Source: a virus. From it: a stretch of DNA of 64,000 nucleotides. A program made the position numbers and the translations under genes. The stretch lies in the IMG/VR virus record IMGVR_UViG_2718218054_000003; one strand, written 5' to 3'. The notes under the pieces are model-generated. The model saw only the letters and a list, made by a program, of their open reading frames with translations, was not told the DNA's origin and did not search any database. Within the stretch, counting starts at the first letter, position 1. The number at the start of each line of letters is the position of its first letter. Positions 38,082-57,495 of this stretch are shown here, piece after piece.

Positions 38082-41000
38082 GCCTGGCTCGCCTCCACCT
38101 GCCGCAGGGCCTCACGGAGACGCACGACGAACTCGCGTGCGGCAGTGGTCATGGCGTACGGATCGGTGAGGTCGACAACGCCCTGCACCTGCACGATCAG
38201 CTGCTGGATGGTGATCGTGGAGCCGCCGCCAGAGGAAAGGCCGGCCGCACCAAGGTCGAGTGGCACCGGACCGGAGGTCGGTGCCGCGGCACCGTCACCG
38301 CCGACCGTGATTCCGCTTTGGATGGTGCTCGCGAGCCGCAGGGACGCGCGCTCAAGATCCTTGCTGCCAGCATCGAGGCCGATGACCATGCCGGCGGGCA
38401 CCTCGCGCGCGATCTCCTCGGCGACCTTGGAGGGCGAGTGGATGCCGAGGGCGTCCTTGACGGGTGCGGGAATCTGCGCCTTCACCCAATTCCAAATCTT
38501 GTCGCGCAGCCACGAGCCCATGGAGCTGATGCCGTTCCACAGGCCCCGCACGAAGTCCTGTCCCTTGCCCCACAACAGGTCTCCGAAGTTGCCCGCAGCT
38601 TCAAGTAGCCGCCCTGGCAGGCCGCGGACCCAGTCGACCAGCGCCCAGAAGCGGTCGATCGCGGCGTCCTTCGCGCGGTTGATCCACTCGTAGAACCGGA
38701 TGTGCAGACTGCCGAACCACTCCAGCCCTTCGCGGATCAGGTCGATGTTCTCCCGCGTCTTGTTCTTGATCCACTCCCAGGCGGCGGGGATGTTGGTCAG
38801 GGCCCAGGCGATGGCGTCAGCGAGCGGCCCGAACACGGTGTTGTTGACCTGGATGAAGGACGTCACGAGCCACGCGACGGCCGGGATGACGACCCCAGCG
38901 ATGACCGCCGCCAGCTCGATCAGCTGGGGGATGTGAGGTGCTACGGCCTCGACCAGCTTGACGAAGCTCTCGATCAAGAACGGCAGGTGAGGCGCCAGAT
39001 CGATGATCGCCTTGCTCAGCTCGTCGGCGATCACCGACGCCAGGTTCTGCACCTCAGGCCAGATCGGCTCCAGGGCTTCGAGCCACCGCATGGCCAGGTC
39101 CAGAAGCAACGGCAGGAGCTGGACGACGAGGTTGGACAGCGGCTCAGACAGCTTCGCGAGCACCATCCACCACTCGCCGAAGGCCTCGCCGGCGGCCGTC
39201 ATCAGCTCTTGGAACTGGTCGCCGCCGAGCAGGTCCGTGAGTGGCCGAAGGCCGTGCTCGATGATGTGGGTCAGCGCGGGCGACAGGGCGTCGATCAGCG
39301 GCTCCGCGACCGAGAGGAAGCCCCTCGCCAGCGACCGCACTACCGGAACCAGGGCGTCTAGGATCGGCGCGAGTCCGTCCGCGAACATGCCCGTCAGCTC
39401 GCCGATCGGCCCCAGCAGCTCGCCCGCGATCTGGAACACGGACCGCAGCACACTGCCGATCGAACCCATGTGCGGCGCCAGCGCATCGAACATCGCGCTC
39501 ACGCCGTCACCGAGGAAGTGCAGCCCGTCCGCTAGCGCGTCCGTGACCGGCTTCGCCTGCGCGCCAAGCTCAACCCAGTCCCGGAACAGCTGCAACCCGA
39601 CGTCACCGGCTGCCTTGAACATGGTCATGCCGTTGGCGAAGTTCTGTGCGAGTTCCCCTTGGAACACCGGGTCCCGGAACAGGTCTCCGGCCCGTGCGGC
39701 GAGGTCACCGATGATGCCGCTGGCGTCGCCGATGGCCTGCTTGAAGATCGGGAACAGCGTCTCGCTGTCCTTGAGCATCTTCGTGAAGCCGGGCAGCATT
39801 TCCTGCTGCGCCGTCTTGGACAGGTCGTCCAGCAGCGGCTTCATCGAGATCAGCTGCTCGACGAACGCACGCCCCTCCGGGGTGAGCTTGGCCATCGCCT
39901 CGGCGAACTTCGACGTCGCCCCACCAGCAGCGCCCGCCGAAGCAGCCTGCTGAGCCTGCACATCGGCGAGGTGCTCGATCGCGCGCGCGACCCGCTCGTC
40001 GGCCTGGCGACGTCGCTCGGCGGCATCCTCGTGCGCGTCCGCCAGCGCCTTCTGCGCATCCGCGACGTCCCGGTTCGCGTCGGCGAGCCGCTCCCGCGCG
40101 TCGATCACCTGCTCGTCGCCCTCGATGCCGGCGGCGGTTGCCTCCTCGAGGTCGCGGCGGGTGCGGGCGTTCTCCTCCTGCAGGCGCTTCAGCCGGTTCT
40201 CGGCCTGCTTCACGTCGTACTCGGCGCGCCGCTTCTCCAGGTCGGTCGACAGCGGGCTGCCCATCACCTCCTTGAGCCGCTCCTTCGCCGTCTCCAGCGA
40301 GAGCGTCGCGCCCTCTTCGGACAGCGACGCGTCCTCCACCCGGCGCTGCAGGTCCTCCAACTGCTCGGTGGCGCGCCGGCGCGCGTCGGTGAGCGCGTCC
40401 TGTGCGTCCGCCGCAGACCGGTTCGCGTCCTCCACGCGGCGCTCCGCCGCGGCGATCTGGTCAGCGGCGTCCTCGTAGGCCTCGACCTGGTCCCGCTTCG
40501 CGTCGGTGATCGCACGGTTCGCGTCCCGGATCGCCATCGCGTCCGCCAACTGGCTCGCCGCCGAAGAACCCGAGGCGGCACCAGCGGCCTTCTGGTCGGC
40601 CGCGTAGCCCTTGAGCGCGCCGATGACCGGGCCGAACGCCAGCCCGATCGAGGCGATGCCCGCGGCGGCAGCGAACGCGGCGGGAGCGATGGCGGCGATC
40701 GCGCCCGCGCCGGCGATCGCGAGCGGCGGCACGACGCCGAGACCGATCGCGGCGTAGCGGCCGAGCGATCCAAGGTGCACGCCAGAACGGGTTGCTGCGC
40801 CGCCCATCCGGGTCTCGACGTCGTTCGCCGCGGCGCCCGTGGACTGGCGGATCGAGTTCGACGCGGAGCGCATGTCGCGTTCCATGTCGCGCGCGCCGTC
40901 GCGCACCTTGTCCTTGGCGCGGTCCAGCTTGGACTCGTCGACCTCGACGGGGATCTTGGCCTTGACGGTCATGGCGACGAGGTCGACCTCGCTGCGGATC

Positions 41001-41425
41001 TTGCGCCGCCACTCCGCGGCTTCGGCGACGTCCAGCGGGATGTCGGCCTTCATCGTCTGCTGGATCTCTTGGATCTGCGCGGCGATGTGCTGCCGGATTC
41101 GCTCCGTGTCGGCGTCGACCGGGAGTTGGGCGAGGTCCTTGGCTGCGGCGCGGATGTCCGCGTCGACCTTTGCTTTCCACGCGTCGTTGACCGGGTCCTT
41201 CAGTTTCGTCGGGACCTCGACCGGGTCCTTCGACGTCTGCTTCTCGGTCTGCTCCTTGTTCTTCTTCTGCTCGGAGGGTGACGGCGGCTTGAGGGTTGTG
41301 GTGGTAGGCAGCTCGAACGGCTTCGAGTTCTTGATGCGGTCCCGCATCCGCTGCATCTCGTCGTCGGTGTGATCCCGCAAGACGACGTCGACGAACGCCT
41401 CGGCGATCTTGAAGCCTTCGGCCAC
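38078..41425 (-). CDS. Tape measure protein
   Basis: 1115 aa Ala/Leu-rich helical; ALGIHSPSKV motif; after tail chaperones. Confidence 0.9.
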   Translation of the reverse strand: MAEGFKIAEAFVDVVLRDHTDDEMQRMRDRIKNSKPFELPTTTTLKPPSPSEQKKNKEQTEKQTSKDPVEVPTKLKDPVNDAWKAKVDADIRAAAKDLAQLPVDADTERIRQHIAAQIQEIQQTMKADIPLDVAEAAEWRRKIRSEVDLVAMTVKAKIPVEVDESKLDRAKDKVRDGARDMERDMRSASNSIRQSTGAAANDVETRMGGAATRSGVHLGSLGRYAAIGLGVVPPLAIAGAGAIAAIAPAAFAAAAGIASIGLAFGPVIGALKGYAADQKAAGAASGSSAASQLADAMAIRDANRAITDAKRDQVEAYEDAADQIAAAERRVEDANRSAADAQDALTDARRRATEQLEDLQRRVEDASLSEEGATLSLETAKERLKEVMGSPLSTDLEKRRAEYDVKQAENRLKRLQEENARTRRDLEEATAAGIEGDEQVIDARERLADANRDVADAQKALADAHEDAAERRRQADERVARAIEHLADVQAQQAASAGAAGGATSKFAEAMAKLTPEGRAFVEQLISMKPLLDDLSKTAQQEMLPGFTKMLKDSETLFPIFKQAIGDASGIIGDLAARAGDLFRDPVFQGELAQNFANGMTMFKAAGDVGLQLFRDWVELGAQAKPVTDALADGLHFLGDGVSAMFDALAPHMGSIGSVLRSVFQIAGELLGPIGELTGMFADGLAPILDALVPVVRSLARGFLSVAEPLIDALSPALTHIIEHGLRPLTDLLGGDQFQELMTAAGEAFGEWWMVLAKLSEPLSNLVVQLLPLLLDLAMRWLEALEPIWPEVQNLASVIADELSKAIIDLAPHLPFLIESFVKLVEAVAPHIPQLIELAAVIAGVVIPAVAWLVTSFIQVNNTVFGPLADAIAWALTNIPAAWEWIKNKTRENIDLIREGLEWFGSLHIRFYEWINRAKDAAIDRFWALVDWVRGLPGRLLEAAGNFGDLLWGKGQDFVRGLWNGISSMGSWLRDKIWNWVKAQIPAPVKDALGIHSPSKVAEEIAREVPAGMVIGLDAGSKDLERASLRLASTIQSGITVGGDGAAAPTSGPVPLDLGAAGLSSGGGSTITIQQLIVQVQGVVDLTDPYAMTTAAREFVVRLREALRQVEASQA

Positions 41426-45645: not shown

Positions 45646-46722
45646 TCAGGAGTTGTCCTCGTGGATGGCGAACGCGTGCTCGATGCCGACGGCGAAGCCG
45701 CGGCGTGCGCGGAGCTTCAGGATCGACTCGTCGGTAAGCGCGGCGAGGCCGTTTCGGCCGTCGATGTAGATCGACTCCGGGCCGGAGCGGATGCCCAGCA
45801 GCATGAACTGGGGGATGGCGAACACCGCGAGCGGGTTGCCGGTCGGCCGCGCGGTCGGCGTGGCGCTCGTGCGCGCACCGAGCGACCAGCGCACCGGGTA
45901 GCCCATGATGCGGTCCGGAACCGACGCGGCACCGGCGGAGTCACCGCTGGACGACTCGGCGAAGATCGGCCGGTCGTTCGCGTCGACGATGTCGCGCAGG
46001 ATCTGCTTGTACGCCGGGTGCACGATCCACACGCCGGCGCCGTCGACCCAGTAGTCGGAGGTCTCGACCTTGCCGAGCGTGGCCGACAGGCTGGCGTAGC
46101 TGGTGCCGCCCGAACCGGTCTTCGTGATGTTGCTGTTCGCGGTGTAGTTGGTGTCCGCGTTGGTCTGCGTCAGCGTGTAGTACAGGCTGTCGAACTTGCA
46201 GCCCGTGCTCGACTTGGACGCGGTGACCGCCAAGCAGGCGTTGTCGAGGCCCTTCGCGTACGCGGTGGCCCAGTCGCTCAGCTTGGTCTCGACGACGTCG
46301 GCGAGGGAGTCGTCGATGTCCTCCTCGGCGATCCGGACCGCGCGACCGAACTTCTGCGCGCTCAGGATCACCTCGTCGTTGACGTTGGTGTCCTCGCCGT
46401 AGGCACCGCCCTTGGCGACGATGTCCATGTCGATGCCGCCCGACCGCGGGGTGGACCGGGTCTGCGACTTCATGGGGACGCGGTGTGCGACCGCCTCCAC
46501 CGCGGAGTTCTGGCGGATCTTCTGGATGACGTCGGCGCCGAACTCCTCCCAGAGCCACGGCTCGTACGTGTTCCGCGCGCCGCCGCCGAGGGCGCGAATC
46601 GGGGAACCGTCCGGGGCGAAGCCGAGGATGTCGCCGACGTCGTGAGCCGGGACGCGGGAGTCGAAGAGCTCGCGGTCGCGGTCGGTGAACAGGTCGCTGT
46701 TGCGCAGCAGAGTGCCGCCCAT
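45646..46722 (-). CDS. Major capsid protein (HK97 fold) with N-terminal leader
   Basis: GAAGGG RBS; V.LSAQKF..AVRI.EE..DD; DRIMGYPV; ILKLRARRGFAV. Confidence 0.9.
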   Translation of the reverse strand: MGGTLLRNSDLFTDRDRELFDSRVPAHDVGDILGFAPDGSPIRALGGGARNTYEPWLWEEFGADVIQKIRQNSAVEAVAHRVPMKSQTRSTPRSGGIDMDIVAKGGAYGEDTNVNDEVILSAQKFGRAVRIAEEDIDDSLADVVETKLSDWATAYAKGLDNACLAVTASKSSTGCKFDSLYYTLTQTNADTNYTANSNITKTGSGGTSYASLSATLGKVETSDYWVDGAGVWIVHPAYKQILRDIVDANDRPIFAESSSGDSAGAASVPDRIMGYPVRWSLGARTSATPTARPTGNPLAVFAIPQFMLLGIRSGPESIYIDGRNGLAALTDESILKLRARRGFAVGIEHAFAIHEDNS

Positions 46723-46764
46723 GGTCGTGCCCTTCAGGCGATGGGGAGGTGGCTGGCACCTGCG

Positions 46765-46836
46765 CCCCATCACGGGCACGCGGGTCGGAGGTCTTGCTGG
46801 GTCCGATCACCGGATGCGGTGGACGCCCATCACGGG
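46765..46836 (-). repeat. Two CCCGTGATGGG mini-hairpins in capsid 5' leader
   Basis: Direct repeat at about 46766 and 46826. Confidence 0.65.
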
Positions 46837-46909
46837 CCGTACACCTGGCCGAAGAATACACGCTTAGTCAGGCAAAGCTACGACGAAACGGCGGAAGATA
46901 GATCGCGCT

Positions 46910-46931
46910 ACCGAAGATTCGTCGGTACGAT
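46910..46931. promoter_or_regulatory. Operator-like site ACCGAAGATTCGTCGGT adjoining -10 TACGAT of the RNA operon
   Basis: Motif recurs at 46849, 57571, 59765, 59802, 63467, 63499. Confidence 0.6.
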
Positions 46932-46939
46932 GCGCCCAT

Positions 46940-47087
46940 GTCCTGCTAGTAGTTCAGCGGCCTAAGACGCCGCGATCGTGGAGATCGAGTCTCCTGCGGG
47001 GACCCGTTGATCCAGCACCCCGCGAACCCCGGCAAGGGGAGTGACACCGATCGCGGAAGCGCCGGTTCAAATCCGGTCGGCGGGACA
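46940..47087 (+). ncRNA. tRNA-bodied RNA with a 77-nt structured insert replacing the anticodon loop
   Basis: Acceptor stem, D arm GTTCAGCGGCCTAAGAC, anticodon stem CCGCG/CGCGG, T arm GCCGG-TTCAAAT-CCGGT; insert 46975-47051 folds into three hairpins. Confidence 0.8.
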
Positions 47088-47088
47088 T

Positions 47089-47172
47089 GGAAGGCGGCGC
47101 CGAGGTCGGCAAACCGGTCTTGAAAACCGGGCCGGGCCTAACAGCCTGGGGGTTCGATACCTCCGCCTTCTG
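47089..47172 (+). tRNA. tRNA-Ser(UGA), short D-loop
   Basis: GGAAGGC/GCCTTCT; CCGGT-CT-TGA-AA-ACCGG; long variable arm; G73. Confidence 0.8.
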
Positions 47173-47185
47173 CTGATGCTCGACT

Positions 47186-47269
47186 GGAAGACGGCGGCGC
47201 TGGTGCGCCAGATCGGTTGCTAACCGGTCGCCGGGCGAGAGCCCGAGGGTTCGATCCCTTCGTCTTCCG
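47186..47269 (+). tRNA. tRNA-Ser(GCU)
   Basis: GGAAGAC/GTCTTCC; ATCGG-TT-GCT-AA-CCGGT; variable arm with GAGA loop; G73. Confidence 0.85.
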
Positions 47270-47277
47270 CGCAGCAA

Positions 47278-47349
47278 GGCCGGTGAGCCATACGGTTGAG
47301 GCACCGCCCTTTCAAGGCGGGGAACCGGGTTCGATTCCCGGATCGGCTA
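47278..47349 (+). tRNA. tRNA-Glu(UUC)
   Basis: GGCCGGT/ATCGGCT; CCGCC-CT-TTC-AA-GGCGG; CCGGG-TTCGATT-CCCGG. Confidence 0.88.
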
Positions 47350-47351
47350 CA

Positions 47352-47441
47352 GCTCGGCGAAGTCGAAAGAGGCGTGGCGCCCCACGTCGAGTCGAGAGGC
47401 AGCAGGGTCCCGTCAGAGATGCGGGACAGCCCGTGGCAGCC
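47352..47441 (+). ncRNA. Unassigned structured RNA between tRNA-Glu and tRNA-fMet
   Basis: GCTCGGCG/CGTCGAGT stem; GTCCCG/CGGGAC stem; GNRA loops; no T-loop. Confidence 0.5.
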
Positions 47442-47445
47442 GCGG

Positions 47446-47518
47446 TGCGCCGTGGAGCAGTCGGTAGCTCGCTGGGCTCATAACCCAGAGGTCGCGGGTT
47501 CAAGTCCCGCCGGCGCTA
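47446..47518 (+). tRNA. Initiator tRNA-fMet(CAU)
   Basis: 1:72 mismatch, three G-C pairs in anticodon stem CTGGG-CT-CAT-AA-CCCAG. Confidence 0.92.
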
Positions 47519-47525
47519 CAACGAG

Positions 47526-47560
47526 AAGGGCCCGCCCGGATGTCACCGGGCGGGCCCTTT
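47526..47560. terminator. Bidirectional terminator between RNA operon and Ro60 gene
   Basis: AAGGGCCCGCCCGG/CCGGGCGGGCCCTT stem followed by T run. Confidence 0.8.
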
Positions 47561-47572
47561 GTCACATGCCGT

Positions 47573-49216
47573 TCAGAACGGCCAGGTGGCGTCTCGGCCG
47601 GACTCGAGCCACGGGATCATCTTGAAGGCCGCGTCGGTCAGGCCGCCGAAGGTGTGCCGGTTCCGCGCTCCGGAGCGGGTGTTGCCGTGCTGGTAGCCAC
47701 CCAGGTTCCACACGTACACCGGCGTGCTGCCCGGCACCGAGGCGGCAGCGTCAGCCGAGGCCGACTGCTCGTCGGTCACGATGATCACGCGGTCGTGGCC
47801 GGCGAAGTGCTCGCGCACCGCAGCTGCCGTGTCCGTGTAGCTGATCGGGTCGCCGAGGCCGTCGACGAACTTCAGCAACGACCCGCCGCGGGGCGGGTCG
47901 ACCTTGCGGCTCGTGCCACCGAACAGCACGGTCGTGGCGTTGGCCGCGCGCATCGCAACCGCGCAACCGAACACCGCCGCCTGGTCCGCGCACGTGATGT
48001 CCGACTTGGACGGCGTCGAGAAGTGGTAGCCGGGGAACATCGACGGCGACCGGTCGATCAGCACGAGCGTCCGCCCCGGCAGCGCGGGCACGTTCCGCAG
48101 GGACGCCTGCAGCGCCTTCTCCAGTGTGTGCCCCCACCGCAGCGACGGCGCGGCCCGGTACGCGGCCAGGAACCGGAACGGGAACTGCTGCGACCGCTCC
48201 ACCTGCGCGGGGTCCGCCAGCTTCGCCGCGACCTCTGCTGCGACCTCGTCCGAGACGCCGGCCTCGTCGAAGTTCCTGAGCTGACGGAGCAACGCCATGT
48301 AGCCCATGGTCGGGACGAGCGCCTCCCACACCTGCGCGGTCATCGGGCCCTGCAGCCACCCGGCGACCGACTCCCACGTCATGCCTGCCTGCCGCAGCAC
48401 CGAGGAGACGGCGTCGCGGTCACGGTCGAACAGGGCACGGCGCTTCTCGACCGGCCACTTCATCAGCTCGGCGCGCGCAGCCATCATCTCGAGCCGGGCG
48501 GGGATGGCGGCTTCGTTGTCGCGTCGCCGGTCGAGCATGTGCTGGAACAGGTCGCCCTGCCAGTCCGCCTTCGGTGACGGGTGCGCGAGGTTCAGCACGT
48601 CGGCCATGCGGAAGCCGCGGGCGGTGCTGTCCCACTTCAGCACCGCGCGCTCGTCCCACAGGCGCTGGATGGCGTCGGCGATGCCGCGCTTCACGGGCTT
48701 GGGCACCTTGCGTCCGTGCACCGCGGTCCAGTAGGCGAGGAGTTCGCCGGGCTCGTCGGCGCGCTGCAGCACGGACTCGATGACGTTGCGGTTGGCGGCC
48801 AGCACGTAGTTGAGGTGGTCGCCGTCGAACGTGCCGTCGAGCGCCTGCGTCTCGTGCTGGTCGGCCGGGCGCGTGCCGGCGGCGGCGAGGCGGGCGTGCA
48901 CGTACTCGGCCGCGCCGACGAGCGATGCCGTGCGCATGTTCGCCTCGGTGCGCAGCCAGAGCAGGAACCGGGCCGTCCACGCCGGATCCTCCAGCGCGAC
49001 GGTGCGCACGAGGTCGGCGTAGCGGACGTCGCGCTTCTCGGCGGACTCGTAGAAGGTGTCGGTGCCGACCATGTTGGACACGGCGTGCAGGAACAGCTCG
49101 GACTTGGTGTCGCGCGCGAAGGCCTCGCCGCCCTGGTGATTGCGGGCGATCGTGGGCGTGCTGACGACCGGGCTGGAGACAGCCGGTCGGACCCCTTGGG
49201 TGTTGAATCGTGCCAC
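47573..49216 (-). CDS. rsr: Ro60/TROVE-domain RNA-binding protein with vWA domain
   Basis: MARFN start, YLR..ANMRT-like WLRTEANMRTASL, QRADEPGE, KWD, MGYMALLRQLRNF, QFPFRFLAAY, MIDAS DRSPS, IVTDEQ. Confidence 0.93.
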   Translation of the reverse strand: MARFNTQGVRPAVSSPVVSTPTIARNHQGGEAFARDTKSELFLHAVSNMVGTDTFYESAEKRDVRYADLVRTVALEDPAWTARFLLWLRTEANMRTASLVGAAEYVHARLAAAGTRPADQHETQALDGTFDGDHLNYVLAANRNVIESVLQRADEPGELLAYWTAVHGRKVPKPVKRGIADAIQRLWDERAVLKWDSTARGFRMADVLNLAHPSPKADWQGDLFQHMLDRRRDNEAAIPARLEMMAARAELMKWPVEKRRALFDRDRDAVSSVLRQAGMTWESVAGWLQGPMTAQVWEALVPTMGYMALLRQLRNFDEAGVSDEVAAEVAAKLADPAQVERSQQFPFRFLAAYRAAPSLRWGHTLEKALQASLRNVPALPGRTLVLIDRSPSMFPGYHFSTPSKSDITCADQAAVFGCAVAMRAANATTVLFGGTSRKVDPPRGGSLLKFVDGLGDPISYTDTAAAVREHFAGHDRVIIVTDEQSASADAAASVPGSTPVYVWNLGGYQHGNTRSGARNRHTFGGLTDAAFKMIPWLESGRDATWPF

Positions 49217-49248
49217 AGGCTCAACCTCTCTGCGAGAGGGAGCTACAG

Positions 49249-49399
49249 CCTCACACGGGCCCGAGGTCAAGTCGGTGAAGGTGACAATGCGTCCTGGGCC
49301 GCTAGACCACGTCGACATGAAGCCGACGGCAGGATTCGAACCTGCGCCTCACCTTTTGCAGAGGAAGTAACCCTCGCCTGCGCACCGGGCCGTGTGAAG
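49249..49399 (-). ncRNA. yrlA: YrlA-type Y RNA with circularly permuted tRNA-like domain
   Basis: Order T arm (GCAGG-TTCGAAT-CCTGC), acceptor closed by loop (CGTCGGC-TTCAT-GTCGACG), D arm (GTCTAGCGGCCCAGGAC); terminal stem with TTGACC; directly upstream of Ro60. Confidence 0.85.
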
Positions 49400-49406
49400 T
49401 TGTTGG

Positions 49407-49475
49407 CTCCCGAGATCAGGGCGCCGACGGTGGGTTTCTTTACGAGAGAAGTAACCGTCGGCTTCGCACCGGGAG
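49407..49475 (-). ncRNA. Second, short Y-like RNA lacking the tRNA-like domain
   Basis: 5' 26 nt match the YrlA-like RNA at 23/26; terminal stem CTCCCG/CGGGAG; inner stem GCCGACGG/CCGTCGGC. Confidence 0.7.
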
Positions 49476-49484
49476 TGCACGTCC

Positions 49485-49514
49485 ACTGTAACCCAGCTGT
49501 GCCACTGCTTTGAA
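49485..49514 (-). promoter_or_regulatory. SigA-like promoter for Y RNA-Ro60 operon
   Basis: TTCAAA-N18-TACAGT. Confidence 0.55.
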
Positions 49515-49518
49515 CCAT

Positions 49519-49935
49519 TCACACGACGGTGACGGTCTCCTCCGCCACCTCGCCGCTCACGATGCGAAACGACTTCACATCCGGCGGCATCCGGACGTTG
49601 CCGCGGTCGCGCGTCGCCACGATCACCCAGTGCGCCTCGGGAATCGTGGCGTGCTGGATGTCCAGCCTGGACGGGTACGCGTGCGTCGCCGTGTGCGAGT
49701 GGTAGATGACGACCGGCCGTTCCCGCTTCTCGGCCATCTCCTGCCACACCTCGATCTGTTCGTCCGGGTTAAACCGGTACGCCACGGTCGAGCGCTCGGC
49801 GTTGCGCATCGGCACGATCCGGTCCGGCACGTCGCCAGCGCGCGGGCCGGGCATAACACCGCAGGCCTCGATCGGGTGCTCGGCGCGGCAGTGCGCGAGC
49901 ATCGCGTCGAACAGGTGGCGGGGCATGGTCAGCAC
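49519..49935 (-). CDS. JAB/MPN+ metalloprotease, Mec (CysO-cysteine peptidase)-like
   Basis: EACG...YHSHTATHAYPSRLD (E, HxH-x7-S-xx-D). Confidence 0.9.
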   Translation of the reverse strand: MLTMPRHLFDAMLAHCRAEHPIEACGVMPGPRAGDVPDRIVPMRNAERSTVAYRFNPDEQIEVWQEMAEKRERPVVIYHSHTATHAYPSRLDIQHATIPEAHWVIVATRDRGNVRMPPDVKSFRIVSGEVAEETVTVV

Positions 49936-50600
49936 GGCGGCTCGGTCCCTTCGATCGCGGCGAGGACCTTCGTGACTCGATACGGCTGCTGGCACGACTC
50001 GCACCTCGGAAGCCCCCGGCGCATGCCGGACCTCTCGAACTCGGTGCCGTGGTACTGGCAGGACTTGGGCGCGTGCTTCAGCACGGACGCCGCGCGCAGC
50101 AGCTTCGCCTCAGCGCCGCCGGCGCGACGGGCCATCGCGACGAGCTCCTCCTGCAACGTCGCGTGCCCCGCTTGCTCGCACGCGGCACCGGCGGCCGCCG
50201 CGGCGAACAACATGCCGATCTGTTCCAGGCGCTGATCGACGGGCGTCTGGTTCCAGCGCGCCAGCCACTGGCCAGGCGTCGGACGCACGCCCTCGACCGG
50301 CTCCGTCGACGGGTCCTCGCCGGCGCGGAGCCACGCCACCTCCGCGCGCAGCCGCTCCAGCTCGGCGGCGTGCTCGTCGTCGTCCAGGTCGAGGAACACG
50401 AGGCGGGTCGCGCCGTCGTGGCCGTGCACGGTCTCGGCGCTCGCGAGGTCGTCCCAGTTCACTGTGGACTGGTGCTCGCCGCGCCACCGAATCGTGACCG
50501 TTCCGTCCGGCCACAGGACGCCGTCCGCGACCCGGCCGGTGCCGGACGCGCCGGTGACGTCAGTGCGGCGGTCGAGGTAGAACCTGTGAGGTTCAGCCAC
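49929..50600 (-). CDS. Conserved-looking phage hypothetical protein
   Basis: DVTGASGTG.VADGV.WPDG.V..RW, HGHDG.T. Confidence 0.7.
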   Translation of the reverse strand: MAEPHRFYLDRRTDVTGASGTGRVADGVLWPDGTVTIRWRGEHQSTVNWDDLASAETVHGHDGATRLVFLDLDDDEHAAELERLRAEVAWLRAGEDPSTEPVEGVRPTPGQWLARWNQTPVDQRLEQIGMLFAAAAAGAACEQAGHATLQEELVAMARRAGGAEAKLLRAASVLKHAPKSCQYHGTEFERSGMRRGLPRCESCQQPYRVTKVLAAIEGTEPPC

Positions 50601-50808
50601 CGTTGTTCTCCTTGCCCTGTTCGGCGTGGACCTGGCTTGATGTGAGGAGCTCGGCCGAGGACAGGATGATCGCCAGCCAGCTCAGGCCGAGGACGAACTG
50701 CGGTTCGTCGTTTGCGACGGTGAGCGCGGTGATGGGCCAGCCGATGGCCGAACCGACGAGCAGTACCCACGCGATGACGATCCGGGCCTTACGGGCGCGT
50801 TGGCTCAC
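50593..50808 (-). CDS. Small membrane protein
   Basis: 2 TM. Confidence 0.65.
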   Translation of the reverse strand: MSQRARKARIVIAWVLLVGSAIGWPITALTVANDEPQFVLGLSWLAIILSSAELLTSSQVHAEQGKENNGG

Positions 50809-51071
50809 GGCTGTTCCTGGTGGCAGGAGCAGCCGCAGCGGCGGCCAGTCTCGGTTGCGAGGATGGCCTGGGCGGCTTCCCAGACGTACATGACGGGCCT
50901 GCTCAGGAGAACCCGCCAGTTCTCGCGGCGGGCTTGCTCTTCGACGCTGCGCAGCCAGAGACCGATCGGCTTCCGGAGCGCCGGCGGTTGGATAACGTCG
51001 ACGTGCTCGACGGCATCAAGAAGCACGGCACGGAACTGCTCGACGGTCACGTCACTCAAGGACCTGGTCAT
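50805..51071 (-). CDS. Hypothetical protein
   Basis: ATGA coupling. Confidence 0.6.
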   Translation of the reverse strand: MTRSLSDVTVEQFRAVLLDAVEHVDVIQPPALRKPIGLWLRSVEEQARRENWRVLLSRPVMYVWEAAQAILATETGRRCGCSCHQEQP

Positions 51072-51532
51072 GGCAGCTCCACGTGGCAGTCGCAGATGCA
51101 GCGGCCGTTGACGTCCATGCGGCCCTGGGGCTCGCCGTGGTGGAGCGGCAACGTGCAGCAGCGGGGGATGATGGCGTCGAGCTGGTCGTGCAGGACGGGG
51201 ATGTGCGGTCCGAGGCCGGGCATGCCGGGGTAGGGCGGCGGGAACTCGTCGGCGCGGCGCTCGGCCACCACATTGGTCCGGTACACCACCCGCAGCGCGC
51301 CGGCTGACGGCTGACCCGGTTCCCACGGTTCCCGGACGATCTGGTCGTCCTCACCGCGGCGTTCCAGCGTCCAGGTCTCGTGGAGCGGTGTGGTGATGCG
51401 CCTGCCGTCCCGTGCCACGGCCTGCTTGAGGGCTCGCCGCGCCTCGTGCTTGAGGGCGTCCACGACGAGCGGTTGTTCTGCGTCGTCTGCGTGCAGCGCG
51501 AACGTGCCGCCGAATTGCTGAGGATCGGTCAC
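51068..51532 (-). CDS. Hypothetical protein
   Basis: GGAGG RBS; coupling. Confidence 0.55.
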   Translation of the reverse strand: MTDPQQFGGTFALHADDAEQPLVVDALKHEARRALKQAVARDGRRITTPLHETWTLERRGEDDQIVREPWEPGQPSAGALRVVYRTNVVAERRADEFPPPYPGMPGLGPHIPVLHDQLDAIIPRCCTLPLHHGEPQGRMDVNGRCICDCHVELP

Positions 51533-51795
51533 GAGGGGTCCTCCGACGATGCGTTGGTGCGGAGCCAGTGCAGGTCCGCGTGGCAGAGGTCCACCCAGCG
51601 GGGCCCGAGCTTGGTGTGCGCGATGCACGCGACCTGGGCGCGCTCGCCGCAGCGCAGGCAGCCGTGCACCTCGTCCTGGACACGGCGCGTGGTCGCGGCA
51701 CCCTGGTCGTCGGCTGGCGCTTCTTCGAGCAGACGCGGTTCCGCGCGCACGAGGTGGAGCAGGCCGTCGGCGAGTGCCCTTTCGGATGCGGTCAT
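51529..51795 (-). CDS. Small Zn-finger-like protein
   Basis: CLRC..DLC..D. Confidence 0.6.
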   Translation of the reverse strand: MTASERALADGLLHLVRAEPRLLEEAPADDQGAATTRRVQDEVHGCLRCGERAQVACIAHTKLGPRWVDLCHADLHWLRTNASSEDPS

Positions 51796-51942
51796 GGGCG
51801 CCATCCCTCGCGGTACCCGTCGTTGTGCTGGTAGGCGAGCGCGATGTCGCGCCACGTCCCGCAGGGGAAGTACTTGGTGTCCTCGAAGCCGATCGCTTGC
51901 TCTCGGCTGCACGCGTTGCACCACGCGGTATCGCAGCTTCAC
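51792..51942 (-). pseudogene. DUF6221-like C-terminal fragment with disrupted start
   Basis: Frame reads SCDTAWCNAC...FPCGTWRDIALAYQHNDGYREGWRP-stop; GTG is one base out of frame. Confidence 0.5.
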
Positions 51943-52376
51943 GTCGTGTCCTCCTCGACTGCGGTCCAGTTTTCGAGCACGACTACGCGACGGCGGTACA
52001 CCTTGCTGCCGTTCTGCAGCTCGTCCCGGATCCACTCCGCCAGCGGGTAGACGCGCTCGATGTCCGGATGCGGGTTGCGGACCTGCATCCCGCCGCTGGC
52101 CAAGCGGAGCGCGTGCTCGGTGAGCGTCGCCTCCGTGACCTTCGTGAGTTCCGCGTTCAGGCGCTGAATCGTGCGCAGGTACTCCAGCGGGGTGTGGGTG
52201 TCCACATGCGCCTGGAGGACGGCCTCCGCGTCCTGTGCCTCCTGAATCGCCACAGCCGCCACGAACTCGTCGAGCGTGAGGAACGAGCCCTGAGGTGGCC
52301 CTCCGAGGGGTGACGGGCGGTCGAGGTAGAAGTCGCACTCGTCGACCGGGCACAGGTGCCGAAGCGTTGGGCCCAT
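51939..52376 (-). CDS. Hypothetical protein
   Basis: Coupling. Confidence 0.6.
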   Translation of the reverse strand: MGPTLRHLCPVDECDFYLDRPSPLGGPPQGSFLTLDEFVAAVAIQEAQDAEAVLQAHVDTHTPLEYLRTIQRLNAELTKVTEATLTEHALRLASGGMQVRNPHPDIERVYPLAEWIRDELQNGSKVYRRRVVVLENWTAVEEDTT

Positions 52377-52819
52377 CACGGCCGCCACTCCTCGCGGTAT
52401 CCGGGGCGGTGCTGGTAGGCGAGCGCGACGATCCTGATGGTCTTGCAGGGGTATCGCTGTGGTGAGCTGCCGCCGTGCGTCGGGTAGCCCCACTTGCCGG
52501 TGACGCAGGTGGCGCAGTCGCCCTCGTTGACGTCCCAGTGCTCATCGAGGAGCGCTTCGTGTGCGGCGCACTGGGCGAGCACGACGCGCGGGTCGTGACG
52601 GACAATGTGCAGCGCGTCCTCGGTGGAGTCGAAGACGGGCGCCTCACCACCCCAACGGCCGCCGCCGATCACGCACGTTCCGTCGGCGCCGTAGATCGCC
52701 TCGGCGTACCCCGCGTCGTTCACATGCCACGGACCGTCGCAGGACTCCTCCGCGATCCGTCGATCCTCGGCGATCTGCTCGCGCAGCCACACCACGAGCT
52801 CGTCGAGCGCCGCCGTCAC
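52376..52819 (-). CDS. DUF6221-family protein
   Basis: WLREQIAED, HDPRVVLAQC, PC.TIRIVALAYQHRPGYREEWRP. Confidence 0.75.
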   Translation of the reverse strand: MTAALDELVVWLREQIAEDRRIAEESCDGPWHVNDAGYAEAIYGADGTCVIGGGRWGGEAPVFDSTEDALHIVRHDPRVVLAQCAAHEALLDEHWDVNEGDCATCVTGKWGYPTHGGSSPQRYPCKTIRIVALAYQHRPGYREEWRP

Positions 52820-53205
52820 CGCGGTTCCTCCAGGAGTTGGGGGATGCAGTCGCCTGCGATCGAGCAGATCGTCCTGTCCCGCAGACGGATCGTGCCTGCT
52901 TCGGCGAGCGGGATCTCGTCAGCGCCGCCCTCTTTGCGAGGCCGGAGAACGGTCCACCGGATACCGGTTGTGGTGATCATGACGAGGTTCTTGTCGAAGG
53001 TTTCCCTTCTCGCCCGCGCGATCACCTCGGCCTCGGTGTAGCGGCGTGCGTAGTCGTCGGTGAAGTATTCAGCGATCAGCTCGCACTTCGCTTCGACTCG
53101 CTTGCGGGTGGCCCAGCAGCCGACGACGTGGAAGCCGGCCGTCATGTGGTCGATCATCGCCACCACCTCCACCTGCGCAGCCGCGCCCGGAAGCGCTGCC
53201 ACCAC
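52816..53205 (-). CDS. Hypothetical protein
   Basis: Coupling. Confidence 0.55.
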   Translation of the reverse strand: MVAALPGAAAQVEVVAMIDHMTAGFHVVGCWATRKRVEAKCELIAEYFTDDYARRYTEAEVIARARRETFDKNLVMITTTGIRWTVLRPRKEGGADEIPLAEAGTIRLRDRTICSIAGDCIPQLLEEPR

Positions 53206-53435
53206 GTGCGCTCTGGCAGCAGCACGACCTGCACGCCAGCAAGAGGGGCCACCACGCCGAGGTCGTCAGGGCGCTGGAGAAACGGCGGCGCAGCCGCGGT
53301 GTACCGCTTCAGCACGTCGAATTGGCGATGCGTCATGAAGACGTGCGTTGGCCACGGCTCGGCCGCCAGCGGCGGCATGTTGGCGAGCAGCGTCCTCATG
53401 TACTCGTCCATCTTGCTGCTGATCTGCTCGTGCAC
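53154..53435 (-). CDS. Hypothetical protein
   Basis: Start uncertain. Confidence 0.5.
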   Translation of the reverse strand: MHEQISSKMDEYMRTLLANMPPLAAEPWPTHVFMTHRQFDVLKRYTAAAPPFLQRPDDLGVVAPLAGVQVVLLPERTWWQRFRARLRRWRWWR

Positions 53436-53620
53436 GGCTCGGTGCCGGTGTCGGTGCTGCCCCAGCGCAACCGGGCGAGCAGCCCGACGACGTGGTCCCG
53501 CGCACCGGCCCAGCTGGCGAAGGACGTGACCTCCGGGTCGCCGAACCCGAGGCGTGGCCAGGTGACCGTCCACTCCTGCGGCGCGGTCTTCCTGATGCTG
53601 ACGCGGTCACGCACGATCAC
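53396..53620 (-). CDS. Hypothetical protein
   Basis: GTGA coupling at start. Confidence 0.45.
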   Translation of the reverse strand: MIVRDRVSIRKTAPQEWTVTWPRLGFGDPEVTSFASWAGARDHVVGLLARLRWGSTDTGTEPCTSRSAARWTST

Positions 53621-54017
53621 CGCCGCGGTGCATGCAGGGCGGGCGGTCGTTCCAGTTCATGTCGTAGTCGACCCAGACGAGCGTCCCGTTGAGCCAGCCC
53701 AGGTTCGCCGGCTTCTTGTCCATGGGACCGTTGAAGCCGATGGCGGCGTACACGTCGTCGGTCAGGTCCTCCGACGCGGGCTCGCACCGCGGGTAGACGT
53801 TGACGAGCCCGGCCGCCGACCAGAGGACAGGGCAGAGGCCTTCCTGCCCGGACCACTCGGCTTCGGACAGGTTCGCGGACAGCCCGCGGGCGAGACTCCA
53901 CATCACGCCGCGAAGCCTCTTGCCGTGCGAGCGCAGCGACGGAAACTTGAACGCCCACCGGCCGGCGAGCAGCACCGTGCGGGTGACTCCGCGGCGTACC
54001 GCGAACCGCGGCTCCAT
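53607..54017 (-). CDS. Minimal protein-kinase-like fold protein
   Basis: G.TR.V, AFKFP (Lys), NLSE (alphaC Glu), DKKPAN catalytic loop, VDYD. Confidence 0.55.
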   Translation of the reverse strand: MEPRFAVRRGVTRTVLLAGRWAFKFPSLRSHGKRLRGVMWSLARGLSANLSEAEWSGQEGLCPVLWSAAGLVNVYPRCEPASEDLTDDVYAAIGFNGPMDKKPANLGWLNGTLVWVDYDMNWNDRPPCMHRGGDRA

Positions 54018-54020
54018 GGT

Positions 54021-54818
54021 TCAGCGCTGCCCGGAGGCGTGGATCTTGGCCACGATCCGGTCGGCCGTGCGCGTGGGCTCCTGCTTCACGGGCGGCTTGT
54101 TCGCCGCCGTGACCTTCGTCGGGCGCGTCGGCTTCGTCGGCTCGGACGCCCGGACCGGTGCGGTGAACAACTCCGGGAAGTCGTCGACCAGCTGGTCGAT
54201 CTGGTCCTGGAGGCCGGTGATGTCGCCGTCCTCGTCCACGTCGATTTCATCGAGGTCGAGCCGGCGGATGAGCTTCTTGACGCGCTCCTCAGTCGGGTTC
54301 TGGAAGTTGGCCTCCAGCAACGCCGCCTTCGCCGCCGCCCGGACCGCGACCGGCTTGTACCGGGACGCCGCCGCCTCCTCGGCCTTCCTGATCCGCTCCG
54401 CCTCGTCGGTGTCGCCCGACGTCTCCGCGGCCTTGCGCTCCTTGCGCATCTCCGCGATCTGGCCCTCGCGCTTCTTGCGGAGCTCGCGCTCCTTCTGCAT
54501 CGCGGTCTCGAGGCGCTGCCAGTCCTCTGCGGTGCGCTCCGGCTTGTCCGTCTCCTTGACGGGCTTCGACTTGTCCCCGGGCTTCGCGTCCTGCGGTGCC
54601 TCGTCGGGCTCGTCATCGTCGTCCGGCTCGTCGTCGAGGAAGTCCCGCTGACCGCCGCCCGCGGGCGCACCCGATCCTGGGTTCTCCAGGTCGATCTCGG
54701 GGCCGTCGTCATCGTCGTCCGGGGCGCCGCCGAGCTGCGGCCACACCGGTTCGCCCTCGAACACCGCGAGGGCCGTACCCCACACGGGGTGCACCGGGTA
54801 GATCGTGTTGTCCTGCAT
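54021..54818 (-). CDS. Capsid scaffolding protein with N-terminal leader
   Basis: Acidic linker, coiled coil, LDLDEIDVDEDG, FPELF. Confidence 0.8.
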   Translation of the reverse strand: MQDNTIYPVHPVWGTALAVFEGEPVWPQLGGAPDDDDDGPEIDLENPGSGAPAGGGQRDFLDDEPDDDDEPDEAPQDAKPGDKSKPVKETDKPERTAEDWQRLETAMQKERELRKKREGQIAEMRKERKAAETSGDTDEAERIRKAEEAAASRYKPVAVRAAAKAALLEANFQNPTEERVKKLIRRLDLDEIDVDEDGDITGLQDQIDQLVDDFPELFTAPVRASEPTKPTRPTKVTAANKPPVKQEPTRTADRIVAKIHASGQR

Positions 54819-54826
54819 GGTGGTCC

Positions 54827-55849
54827 TCATCTCGTGCGGGCCCCGCTCTTGATGCGCGGGAAGGTCTCGAAGGAGCCGCGGCGCACGGCTGCGCGGGCGC
54901 GGGCCTGGACGGTGCTGAGCAGGGTGGTGCCGGACAGCAGAAGCCGTTCGGCGGCGTCGAGGCGGACCCGCTCGCTCTCGGACGGGAGCCGCCAGCCCGT
55001 CAAGATCGAGCGGGCCGCCTCGCGCTGCAGCGCCGCACGGAAGTCCGTGTCACCGGCGCTATCCCTGGTGCCCAGCCAGGGCTGTGTGCGGCACCGGCAA
55101 CGCGGGTGCCGCGGAGGAGACACGAGATCCGGGCCCGGCCAGACCGCGAGCGGCCGGATCCCGAAGGTCTTGGTGGCGTCGAAGACCCCGTCCACCGAGG
55201 TTTCGCCGGCGAGGCCGAGACAGTGCACGCACGCGTCGCGTTCGGCGATCCAGATGCGCTCCACGCCGAGCTCGTCCGCCACGGCGGCGGTGCCGGCGTT
55301 CGCGGCGCGGTTGGTTACCCACGCGGCGGCGGTGTCCGCTGCGATCGCGGCCTGCTGGGCGGGCGCGAACGCGTTCATCAGGCCGGTGAACCGGTCGTCG
55401 TCGAGGCGGGCCAGCGCCCGGTCGGCGTCCGCCAGGTGTCTGCCGATGGTGTCGTCGAGCTCGTCAACCGCGCGCAGCACGTCGTCGGGAAGCTCGTCGG
55501 CCTCGGCCGCGTCCAGGTCAACGTCGACCAGCACCTCGTCGGCGGCCTGCTCGACGCCGAGCCGGTAAGCCCGCACGGCGTACGCGGCCAGCGGGCGAGA
55601 CGCGTCGGGGCGCAACTCGCCGAGGTCCCCGCGCACCGCGTCGACAATCACCCGCAGCTGACGCTGGTCCGCGCGGTTCTTCGTCGTGCCGAACCGCGTG
55701 ATCCACCCGCGGGTGATTGCCCTCACGATGCGGGCGAGCGCGGTTCGCAGCGGCCCGGCGGTCGCGAGCCGTGCGGCCTCCTCCAGCGCGTACAGCTGCG
55801 CCGCATGCTCGACAACCCGGTCGGTGCCAGCAGGCTGAGGCCCGGTCAC
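54827..55849 (-). CDS. Minor capsid / Mu gpF-like head morphogenesis protein
   Basis: WIAERDACVHC, PPRHPRCRC; follows portal. Confidence 0.8.
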   Translation of the reverse strand: MTGPQPAGTDRVVEHAAQLYALEEAARLATAGPLRTALARIVRAITRGWITRFGTTKNRADQRQLRVIVDAVRGDLGELRPDASRPLAAYAVRAYRLGVEQAADEVLVDVDLDAAEADELPDDVLRAVDELDDTIGRHLADADRALARLDDDRFTGLMNAFAPAQQAAIAADTAAAWVTNRAANAGTAAVADELGVERIWIAERDACVHCLGLAGETSVDGVFDATKTFGIRPLAVWPGPDLVSPPRHPRCRCRTQPWLGTRDSAGDTDFRAALQREAARSILTGWRLPSESERVRLDAAERLLLSGTTLLSTVQARARAAVRRGSFETFPRIKSGARTR

Positions 55850-57495
55850 GACTCGTCCCGATCAGCGCTGCCGGCGGCGAGCTGTGGCACGACCTCCAGC
55901 ACGGCGCTGATCAGCTCGCGTACCTGCTCGGCCGGGATCAGCTCGAACGCTGTGACGCCAGCGAAAGCCTGCAGCACGCCACCGATCTGCTCCAGCAGCG
56001 CGAGCCGGGCCGGCAGGTCGTTGTCCTCCTCGCCGAGCCACGCCGTGATCTGCTCGTTGGTGTAGCCGGCCTCCGCGAATGCCTGCCGAACGGGGACACC
56101 AGCCTCGATCTGCAGCTTGATGGTCTGCCAGGCCTCCAGCCCGGACACGCGCTGCACGGGGGCCCAGTTGACGACCACCGGCACGCGCCCGAACCCAGCG
56201 ACCTTGAGAGCGAACTGCCACAGCTCCCGCCACGTCGCCTTGAACGACAGCACGCGGTTCTCGCACTTCTGGTCGAACGGGCGGTCGTGCTGCGAGTAGC
56301 TCGCACCGGACGGCTGCTGGCCGGTGACCGCGTCGAACAAGCGGACCGGGGTCTCGCAGGCCTGCGCGCCGAATCGCAGGTAGAACATCGCAGGCTTGAT
56401 GAAGACGTCAGGGTCGGCCTCGTCGAACTGGCCGACCGCCTTGACGCCACGCATGAACCACAGGTCGCCAGGGTCTGCGGTGAGCTGGGACGGCGCGCTT
56501 CCACCGCGGGTGCGGGTGGCGCCGGTGTCGTCGTCGGCGAAGGAGAACTCGTCTTCGTCGGCCGCCGCGGTCTCGCTGGTGTCGCTGCCTTCGGCGGTGA
56601 GCGCGTACCGCTGCTGGAAACCCTGGTAGTCGACCGTGCCCATGTGGGTGACGATCAACTTCCGCAAGATCTGCTGGGTGCCGTAGAAGCCCTTGTGGTC
56701 AGGGGTGCCGTATGGGCCGACGTCGGTGCGGAAGTGGAACACCGGGATCTCGTCGTACGGGTTGTCGTACGGCCACTCGTCGTCCTCGTCGTCGCGGAAG
56801 ACGTAGAAGTCTGCGGCGGTGGGGTTCCGGACCTTGCCCCTGGTGACGTACTTCTCCAGCCGGTCCCGATAGAACAGGTCGACCCTGGACCGGCCGTCGG
56901 TCAAGCGCCACATCTTGATCGCGAACGCCTTGACGCGTTCGTTTTCCGGGTCGTAGATGATCCGTGTGCACAACGGGGAGTTGTAGGTGATGTCGATCTT
57001 CTCGCGACTCGCCGATCCTTCCGAGACACGAGACTCTTCGGGCACGTCGATGTCGCCGGTGTCGGCGTCGTTGTCCTCCGCAGCGGGCCAGACGATGACG
57101 AGCGCATCGCCGTACTCTCCGGCGCGTAGGTGGATGTTCGGGGCGGCCAGATCGAGCTGGTTGCGTTCCCACTCGCGCTCGATCCATGCGGTGGCCTCGT
57201 CGTTGCCGGGGCACAGGGTCGACGTGATCTTCAGGCGGTTGACGACCGCGGTGACCGGGATGCGCGAGAAGTTGACTTTGTAGTCCACGCCGGTGCGCTC
57301 GATCGCCCGCCGCAGCCTGATGGACGCGAAGACCTCAGGTACATCGTCCTCGAAGTAGTCCTCGGCCTTCTGGTACTCCGCTGCCGCCTTGCGCAGTTCG
57401 TCGAGGCCGTATTCGAGGTCCGGGTTGGTTGCGCGCTCTTCCAGGATGGTGGCGACGACCGCGCCGGCGGACTCGGACAGCATCGGTGTGCTCAC
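55846..57495 (-). CDS. Portal protein (SPP1 gp6-like)
   Basis: After terL; NFSRIPV, YDNPY..IPVFHF, SGAS. Confidence 0.85.
   Translation of the reverse strand: MSTPMLSESAGAVVATILEERATNPDLEYGLDELRKAAAEYQKAEDYFEDDVPEVFASIRLRRAIERTGVDYKVNFSRIPVTAVVNRLKITSTLCPGNDEATAWIEREWERNQLDLAAPNIHLRAGEYGDALVIVWPAAEDNDADTGDIDVPEESRVSEGSASREKIDITYNSPLCTRIIYDPENERVKAFAIKMWRLTDGRSRVDLFYRDRLEKYVTRGKVRNPTAADFYVFRDDEDDEWPYDNPYDEIPVFHFRTDVGPYGTPDHKGFYGTQQILRKLIVTHMGTVDYQGFQQRYALTAEGSDTSETAAADEDEFSFADDDTGATRTRGGSAPSQLTADPGDLWFMRGVKAVGQFDEADPDVFIKPAMFYLRFGAQACETPVRLFDAVTGQQPSGASYSQHDRPFDQKCENRVLSFKATWRELWQFALKVAGFGRVPVVVNWAPVQRVSGLEAWQTIKLQIEAGVPVRQAFAEAGYTNEQITAWLGEEDNDLPARLALLEQIGGVLQAFAGVTAFELIPAEQVRELISAVLEVVPQLAAGSADRDES

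Follow-up and report, generated by a model that had tools for sequence, protein, structure and literature searches.

A Lentzea Prophage with a Ro60 Gene and a Pair of Y-like RNAs, the Longer of Which Has a Permuted tRNA-like Domain

Introduction

A described actinobacterial Ro60 (Rsr) system is that of Mycobacterium smegmatis, in which the small RNAs YrlA and YrlB are encoded upstream of rsr and derive from one precursor (PMC4201824). The permuted tRNA-like layout of YrlA was defined by Chen et al. (2014; PMC4201824), who also cite the motif GGUCCGA; the same paper described relatives of YrlA from 22 phages. In a biochemical study of 2025 (PMC12135203), the Ro60 protein of the phage phiLo was shown to bind both of the Yrl RNAs encoded upstream of it and to enter into complexes with the polynucleotide phosphorylase (PNPase) of the host. 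Here we describe a related locus in a stretch of 64,000 nucleotides (nt) of viral DNA (IMG/VR record IMGVR_UViG_2718218054_000003; hereafter the window), which is a siphophage-type prophage region in the chromosome of an actinobacterium of the genus Lentzea (Pseudonocardiaceae). The locus comprises a Ro60 gene preceded by two Y-like RNAs, a short one (RNA1) and a long one with a permuted tRNA-like domain (RNA2), and converges with a group of tRNA genes; this composition is supported by protein fold, homology, covariation and conserved synteny. It is highly probable that the prophage carries here a Ro60-Y RNA module of the YrlA/YrlB type known from actinobacteria, the RNAs of which would act as adaptors of Ro60.

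The locus resembles that of M. smegmatis in being actinobacterial and in encoding a pair of Y RNAs upstream of, and on the same strand as, rsr; one of them has T, acceptor-like and D arms and a 7-base-pair (bp) acceptor stem, the other is a hairpin. Also shared is a YUAY sequence before the V loop, and the 5' part of the handle (the conserved ends of the RNAs, described below) has a CGAA-type motif in RNA1 and a variant one base off in RNA2. It differs in the order of the RNAs, the short one coming first and the tRNA-like one adjoining the Ro gene, in its location between the scaffold and capsid genes, in a D arm of the tRNA-Glu type, and in the sequence CGCAG of RNA2 in place of CGAAG. In M. 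smegmatis, the acceptor stem is cut by RNase P. The Thermus phage phiLo (PDB 9KOP and 9L5Y) likewise encodes its own Ro60, and a pair of Y-like RNAs lies immediately before the gene, although the protein is only ~20% identical and the host phylum is different; a tRNA-like domain is not described for the phiLo Yrls in the available part of PMC12135203. The YrlA-like RNAs of mycobacteriophages (the 22 phages of Chen et al.) and of the Rfam family YrlA (RF02553) share with RNA2 the position beside Ro genes and the permuted tRNA-like design, but RNA2 scores low against this family (see below) and its carrier is a Lentzea prophage rather than a lytic or temperate mycobacteriophage. The Rsr-Yrn1-PNPase system of Deinococcus radiodurans and the rsr-yrlBA-rtcBA operon of Salmonella appear analogous in combining a Ro60 ring with a PNPase-tethering Y RNA, and a tRNA-like with a non-tRNA-like Y RNA; a relative of the prophage protein has an RtcB gene in its vicinity (see below), whereas, unlike in Salmonella, neither rtcBA nor RtcR adjoins the prophage locus itself.

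The original prediction, made from the sequence of the window, had regarded as less familiar both the pairing of a Ro-binding module with and without the tRNA domain and the placement of Ro next to tRNA genes. The former proved to be the standard layout in M. smegmatis and Salmonella (PMC4201824), in 34 of 36 Lentzea genomes sampled and in most of the actinophage loci compared, and the latter is common, bona fide tRNAs occurring within 2 kb of Ro in five of seven actinophage loci. Mycobacteria, mycobacteriophages and a Thermus phage have previously been found to share this layout, and no new kind of system is revealed.

Results and Discussion

Ro60 Protein and Its Relatives

The gene starts with GTG at 49216, after GAGAGG, and ends with a stop at 47573; on the evidence of its sequence and modelled structure, its product of 547 amino acids (aa) is an orthologue of Ro60/Rsr. 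The TROVE domain was recognized by Pfam (PF05731, E 6.2e-17; score 62 bits, cut-off 23). In the AlphaFold2 model (mean predicted local distance difference test score, 83.6), the entire protein is folded into a ring of HEAT repeats that is closed by a vWA domain, as had been expected of a TROVE-vWA gene. In Foldseek comparisons the highest template modelling score, 0.73, was obtained for Xenopus Ro (1yvp), and the probability was 1.0 for human, Deinococcus and phiLo Ro60, with superpositions spanning the full length; the best PDB matches by sequence were the two phiLo Ro60 entries, 9KOP and 9L5Y (E 4e-19). The D-x-S-x-S sequence of the metal-ion-dependent adhesion site in the vWA domain reads DRSPS, and its residues D388, S390 and S392 are invariant in 29 homologs.

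A search of a large protein collection yielded relatives with 86, 74, 73, and 69% identity, all on metagenomic or run-assembly contigs. The contig of the 86% relative (L043) retains the whole order of the cassette: JAB gene, short RNA, long RNA, Ro, and convergent genes for tRNA-Met, Glu, Ser, and Ser. The short and long RNAs precede Ro in the 73% relative (L044), and the long RNA does so in the 69% relative (L046). Across these three contigs, compensatory substitutions are seen in the stem of RNA1 and in the 7-bp acceptor stem of RNA2. By comparison, the spacer between the RNAs, a TACAGT/TACTGT hexamer, the UUAC motif and the handle remain fixed. The 74% relative (P0003, ENA ERZ27235281) lies on a 98-kb phage-like contig, together with an integrase gene and an RtcB gene 4.4 kb upstream of Ro.

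In a protein tree, which was midpoint-rooted only and from which no direction is deduced, the prophage Ro groups with copies from metagenomes, phage contigs, Umezawaea and Actinokineospora in a clade of their own, which is well supported; the Ro proteins of SEA-PHAGES are found in other clades. Capture from the Lentzea chromosomal rsr was considered and rejected, as the prophage protein lies outside the Lentzea Rsr clade. The host itself is assigned to Lentzea because its genus-mates in this tree include a row identical to a Lentzea flava protein.

Two Y-like RNAs

RNA2 is located upstream of the Ro gene on the same strand and ends 43 nt before its start codon (Table 1). Inside the closing helix, a UUAC motif (positions 20-23) is followed by a small V stem-loop, a canonical T arm, a 7-bp stem, U-G, and the D arm; that is, T arm, loop-closed acceptor and D arm follow a YUAY-type motif and V stem-loop in the order characteristic of YrlA, and the permuted tRNA-like domain predicted for the long RNA is borne out arm by arm. 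Under a covariance model built from long RNAs (R2) RNA2 obtained 100.1 bits (E 5e-22). Stem pairs of the T arm (helix 7) change from G-C to A-U across homologs. All 7 bp of the acceptor stem are kept in L043 and L044 with several compensatory changes and a UUCG loop, and in an alignment of 44 RNAs (A3, see below) the acceptor helices 8-9 are 100% paired, with double changes in four of four counted pairs. In the relatives, stable UUCG or GAAA loops cap the stem, perhaps an indication that the acceptor stem stays closed.

The D arm is of an uncommon kind. The 22-nt region 49287-49308 (minus strand) matches the host tRNA-Glu(CUC) at 20 of 22 positions, the next best tRNA reaching 16 of 22; almost all other YrlA-like RNAs have instead a D arm of the form UAGCUCA...GAGC, and that of the host YrlA matches tRNA-Trp/Lys types. 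A similar D arm, AGCGGCCUAAGAC, occurs in a tRNA mimic at 46940-47087. RNA2 was also considered as a genuine tRNA gene, and this was ruled out: ARAGORN called no tRNA over 49260-49473, the Rfam tRNA model gave 28.2 bits against a cut-off of 29 with an alignment lacking the D arm, and the acceptor is loop-closed.

RNA1 has no tRNA domain and forms a single long hairpin closed by the putative Ro-binding handle (-26.1 kcal/mol, z -2.4), the architecture of the short Y RNAs of the YrlB type; we know of no curated family for YrlB against which it could be scored. Under a model built from short RNAs (R1) it obtained 75.8 bits. In an alignment of RNA1 with 17 short RNAs that precede rsr genes in Lentzea, four stem pairs show double changes, and a compensatory change from C-G to U-A is seen in its stem in L043. 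The presence of both RNAs upstream of Ro agrees with the original prediction; their lengths, given there as 69 and 151 nt, were reduced to 65 and 130 nt by comparison with the relatives. The sequence ACAACUUCACAYG of the spacer between the RNAs is nearly identical in the prophage, L043, L044, and the host locus (C1:3930702-3930721), though the phage and host proteins are only ~63% identical; the spacer may contain a processing site or signal.

Shared Handle and the Host rsr Locus

Both RNAs carry the same handle, composed of 5' GGUGCG(A/C)AG...GGUUACUUC and 3' UGAYCUCGG. Their first 26 nt are identical at 23 positions and their 3' ends are TGATCTCGGG and TGACCTCGGG; this 5' identity and the TGAYCTCGGG ends had been noted correctly from the outset. 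With respect to a 5' motif of the type GNCGAAN0-1G, RNA1 reads UGCGAAG, retaining the CGAAG core, and RNA2 reads UGCGCAG, one base off. Similar A/C variation in the motif is found among the RNAs linked to the host rsr. The phage handle, GGUGCGAAG / UUGAUC, differs by one base from the vertebrate Ro-binding helix, GGUCCGAAG / UUGACY.

The combined handle, defined as the 5' motif, GNUACYUC, and then the 3' motif within 220 nt, was counted on both strands of the genome (2 x 10 Mb). It occurs six times genome-wide, twice at the prophage locus and four times upstream of the host rsr; the handle is more than a chance pattern, because all six occurrences are next to Ro genes. In a whole-genome search with model R1, in which 150 of 6734 candidates were scored, three of the six handle sites were returned, and the pattern count was used instead.

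The host chromosomal rsr, at 3.93 Mb, encodes a protein 58-64% identical to the prophage Ro. Upstream of it are four Y-like RNAs, arranged as two promoter-like units (C1:3930567-3931114, minus strand; L003 1887-2433). A rsr locus of the host type, with two to three RNAs, was found in 34 of the 36 Lentzea genomes sampled. Typically, Lentzea loci have three RNA types: one of 113-116 nt, a hairpin of 64-80 nt, and a tRNA-like RNA of 124-133 nt; RNA1 and RNA2 align with the latter two types. When RNAalifold was applied to these alignments, it recovered all the elements (handle, stem, T arm, D arm, and acceptor stem) and showed compensatory changes. The genome also contains a third, shorter TROVE-like gene (354-aa open frame, C1:2095281-2096400), upstream of which is a 49-nt hairpin (L004 2074-2122) with a degenerate handle (R1, 24.4 bits, E 1e-4).

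Actinophage Loci and Covariation

'Ro-like RNA binding protein' is a routine annotation in actinophages, and Ro loci of seven of them (GiJojo, BRock, VanLee, Atuin, Neville, Quantum, and Kela) were compared. Models R1 and R2 found two to four RNAs beside Ro in the first six and a single truncated match in Kela; the same RNAs were found beside Ro in L043, L044, and L046. In Atuin the Y RNAs are downstream of Ro, and in other phages they lie among tRNA genes. In the Streptomyces phage Kela (L038 1229-1981), a gene annotated as RNA ligase is located directly upstream of Ro; together with the RtcB gene of P0003, this RNA-ligase link of phage Ro recalls the Salmonella operon.

Several public annotations overlap these RNAs. 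The tRNA-Arg(tct) of the Gordonia phage VanLee (L039 1704-1775), the tRNA-Arg(cct) of the Streptomyces phage GiJojo (L036 2269-2343), and a tRNA-Asn(gtt) called by ARAGORN at L046 67-139 each coincide with the 5' half of a YrlA-like RNA found by R2, and in the Gordonia phage Neville (L041 1463-1873) the Y RNAs lie under the small hypothetical open reading frames gp88-90. These tRNA calls and open reading frames are likely mis-annotations.

Alignment A3 combined 44 RNAs, their sources being Lentzea, one other family and six of the actinophages. In A3, which was fitted to the model so that its pair counts are inflated, 96.6% of cells are paired, compared to 80% in shuffles and 33-58% with the partners slid, and changes on both sides are seen in 23 of 32 pairs; none of 500 shuffles reached these values. 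Independent MAFFT alignments showed the same trend.

Proposed Mode of Action and Alternatives

By analogy with the described systems, we infer the following sequence of events. One transcript would begin a few bases upstream of 49473, or read through from the JAB gene, span RNA1, RNA2, and the Ro mRNA, there being no terminator called between them, and end at the GC-rich hairpin beyond Ro. As in M. smegmatis, it would be cut into two stable small RNAs and the mRNA. The Ro60 ring would then bind the handle of each RNA, a putative bulged helix of 5' GGUGCG(A/C)AG and 3' UUGAYC, and the RNA bodies would act as adaptors, RNA2 presenting a tRNA-shaped domain and RNA1 a plain hairpin. Such adaptors might tether Ro60 to the host PNPase or gate access to the ring, as suggested by Deinococcus, Salmonella, and phiLo, and decay or quality control of structured RNA could thereby be redirected during infection or in the lysogen.

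A number of observations weigh against this interpretation. RNA2 deviates from the published CGAA motif by reading CGCAG; its folding energy alone is not exceptional (z -1.5); the candidate promoter rests on one conserved hexamer; and the inflation of the A3 counts has been mentioned. Furthermore, a match to the Rfam YrlA model, the absence of which had been set in advance as evidence against the prediction, was formally not obtained: RNA2 scored 13.9 bits against the gathering score of 69 (RF02553), and at gathering thresholds Rfam reported only two tRNAs across the window. However, the RNAs linked to the host rsr are also below this threshold (37.1 and 33.4 bits, E 2e-6 and 2e-5), which points to a limited reach of the model rather than to absence of YrlA-like RNAs; these host matches form the bridge from the prophage RNAs to the known YrlA family. 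Accordingly, we call the two RNAs YrlA-like and YrlB-like by architecture and linkage, and do not claim membership in RF02553.

Of the other explanations, one that we consider unlikely assigns to the cassette a role directed at tRNA-Glu, as a decoy or sensor for a host factor recognizing this tRNA, rather than that of a general RNA-decay adaptor. YrlA would have been re-tooled by addition of the tRNA-Glu-type D arm, and the host-like handle would let phage and host Ro particles swap RNAs. The context of this explanation is that the prophage also carries a tRNA-Glu gene and a mimic with a tRNA-Glu body in the convergent operon.

It is distinctly unlikely that both structures work in cis within the Ro mRNA leader, for example as autoregulatory Ro-binding sites or stabilizers, rather than as stable trans-acting Y RNAs. 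The lack of a called terminator between the RNAs and the Ro start, the short distance from RNA2 to the start codon, the conserved hairpin holding the ribosome-binding site, and the common precursor of the RNAs and rsr in M. smegmatis are all in agreement with such a role; yet the processed M. smegmatis RNAs accumulate and co-purify with Rsr (PMC4201824), and a leader-only role does not fit because the RNAs of Atuin are downstream of Ro and those of other phages are among tRNA genes. The leader and trans-acting roles are compatible and do not exclude each other.

Very improbable is the suggestion that the phage RNAs are decoys mainly for the host Rsr, or for a tRNA-recognizing host factor, and not adaptors of the phage Ro60. 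Cross-binding is plausible, since the phage and host handles are nearly identical, and the D arm of RNA2 differs from that of the host YrlA; against this, the RNAs are always co-inherited with the phage Ro gene, and the suggestion is pure conjecture. Finally, the notion that RNA2 arose from a tRNA gene by decay or rearrangement, that RNA1 is a chance hairpin, and that both are non-functional, has next to no probability: the near-threshold score of the tRNA model and the tRNA calls on homologous RNAs speak for it, but every helix, including that of the handle, is kept by covariation, the handle is restricted to Ro loci, and conservation of the RNAs extends to phages whose Ro proteins share 40-86% identity. 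The interpretation as Ro60 adaptors of the YrlA/YrlB type is the preferred one.

Candidate Regulatory Elements

Upstream of RNA1, the hexamer TACAGT is kept in L043 and reads TACTGT in L044, while its flanks diverge; scans for sigma-70 promoters and intrinsic terminators over 47000-50200 called nothing. The promoter originally predicted here is retained as a weakly supported candidate, a -10 hexamer conserved in two relatives.

The leader hairpin (GCUCCC... / ...GAGGG..GAGC), in which the Shine-Dalgarno sequence is embedded, was seen in both phage and host lineages (L003, L007-L035, L043, L044, and L046) and may control translation. A consensus fold exists, with covariation close to zero and stability no better than that of shuffled sequences; on these two grounds the hairpin was rejected as a covarying element. 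The 14-bp GC-rich hairpin between the Ro stop and tRNA-Met has folding energies of -37 and -35 kcal/mol on the two strands (z -5.0 and -5.4), and is likely a two-way terminator common to the Ro unit and the tRNA operon.

Prophage Context

The window corresponds to the reverse strand of positions 650,352-714,351 in a genome that forms one contig of 10.0 Mb, with 70% G+C. Near-identical DNA was looked for in a phage collection and was not found. About 7 kb of accessory genes (46780-54020) separate the scaffold and capsid genes (Table 1). Among them are genes for a DUF6221 protein and a JAB protein, the Ro module, and, on the other strand, the tRNA operon; a head module split in this way is unusual. 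Beyond the JAB gene, Pfam and PHROGs searches of the interval from scaffold to Ro yielded only DUF6221 and unknowns, and a ubiquitin-like tagging operon around Ro was rejected on this basis. Just upstream of the large terminase gene, in the place expected for the small terminase, a 188-aa protein (59822-60388, minus strand) matches PHROG 645, labeled 'RNase E' (E 3e-18); this label may be wrong.

The tRNA array is convergent with the Ro gene, as originally described. It is headed by an anticodon-less mimic with a tRNA-Glu body (148 nt, 46940-47087, plus strand). At the corresponding place in L043 (3225-3430) there is no mimic, and model R1 found no handle in that of the prophage; the mimic was therefore rejected as a conserved part of the cassette, of which it is not a fixed component because the L043 operon begins directly with tRNA-Ser.

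Table 1. Positions in the window of the Ro60-Y RNA locus, its elements, and surrounding prophage genes.
Feature	Position	Strand	Basis
Ro60/Rsr orthologue, 547 aa, TROVE ring and vWA domain	47573-49216	-	Open reading frame, Pfam, AlphaFold2 fold, adhesion-site motif
Ro mRNA leader; hairpin GCUCCCUCUC / GAGAGG..GAGC holding the Shine-Dalgarno sequence	49217-49259	-	Conserved design
RNA2, 130-nt YrlA-like Y RNA	49260-49389	-	Model R2, consensus structure
D arm of RNA2, tRNA-Glu type	49291-49307	-	Comparison with host tRNAs
Loop-closed acceptor-like stem of RNA2, 7 bp, loop UUCAU	49310-49328	-	Read from sequence; covariation
T arm of RNA2, 5-bp stem, loop UUCGAAU	49329-49345	-	Rfam tRNA alignment; helix 7 covariation
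Inter-RNA spacer, conserved ACAACUUCACAYG	49390-49408	-	Comparison with L043, L044, and host locus
RNA1, 65-nt YrlB-like Y RNA, no tRNA domain	49409-49473	-	Comparison with relatives
Candidate -10 hexamer TACAGT, 11 nt upstream of first RNA stem	49485-49490	-	Conservation
GC-rich 14-bp hairpin between Ro stop and tRNA-Met	47523-47563	.	Folding
tRNA operon Ser, Ser, Glu, Met	47089-47519	+	ARAGORN; convergent with Ro gene
Prok-JAB protein	49519-50004	-	Accessory gene adjoining Y RNAs
Terminase large subunit	57596-59179	-	Phage gene
Portal	55846-57495	-	Phage gene
Scaffold	54021-54830	-	Phage gene
Major capsid	45646-46779	-	Phage gene
Tape measure	38078-41425	-	Phage gene
Endolysin	29601-30788	-	Phage gene

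Implications

With this locus, a clean and comparatively well-supported case from a temperate actinophage is added to the known Ro60-Y RNA modules. Minor new details are the tRNA-Glu(CUC)-type D arm of RNA2, the 5' halves of Y RNAs taken for tRNAs in public records, the placement of the cassette inside the head module, and the near-identical host and phage handles within one cell. Phage Y RNA modules go unannotated or mis-annotated in public records, their halves being called tRNA-Arg or tRNA-Asn or the RNAs being covered by small open reading frames. As its host and phage modules have near-identical handles, the lysogen is a convenient natural system for studying whether RNAs are exchanged between the Ro particles of phage and host, and what benefit a phage may derive from Ro60.

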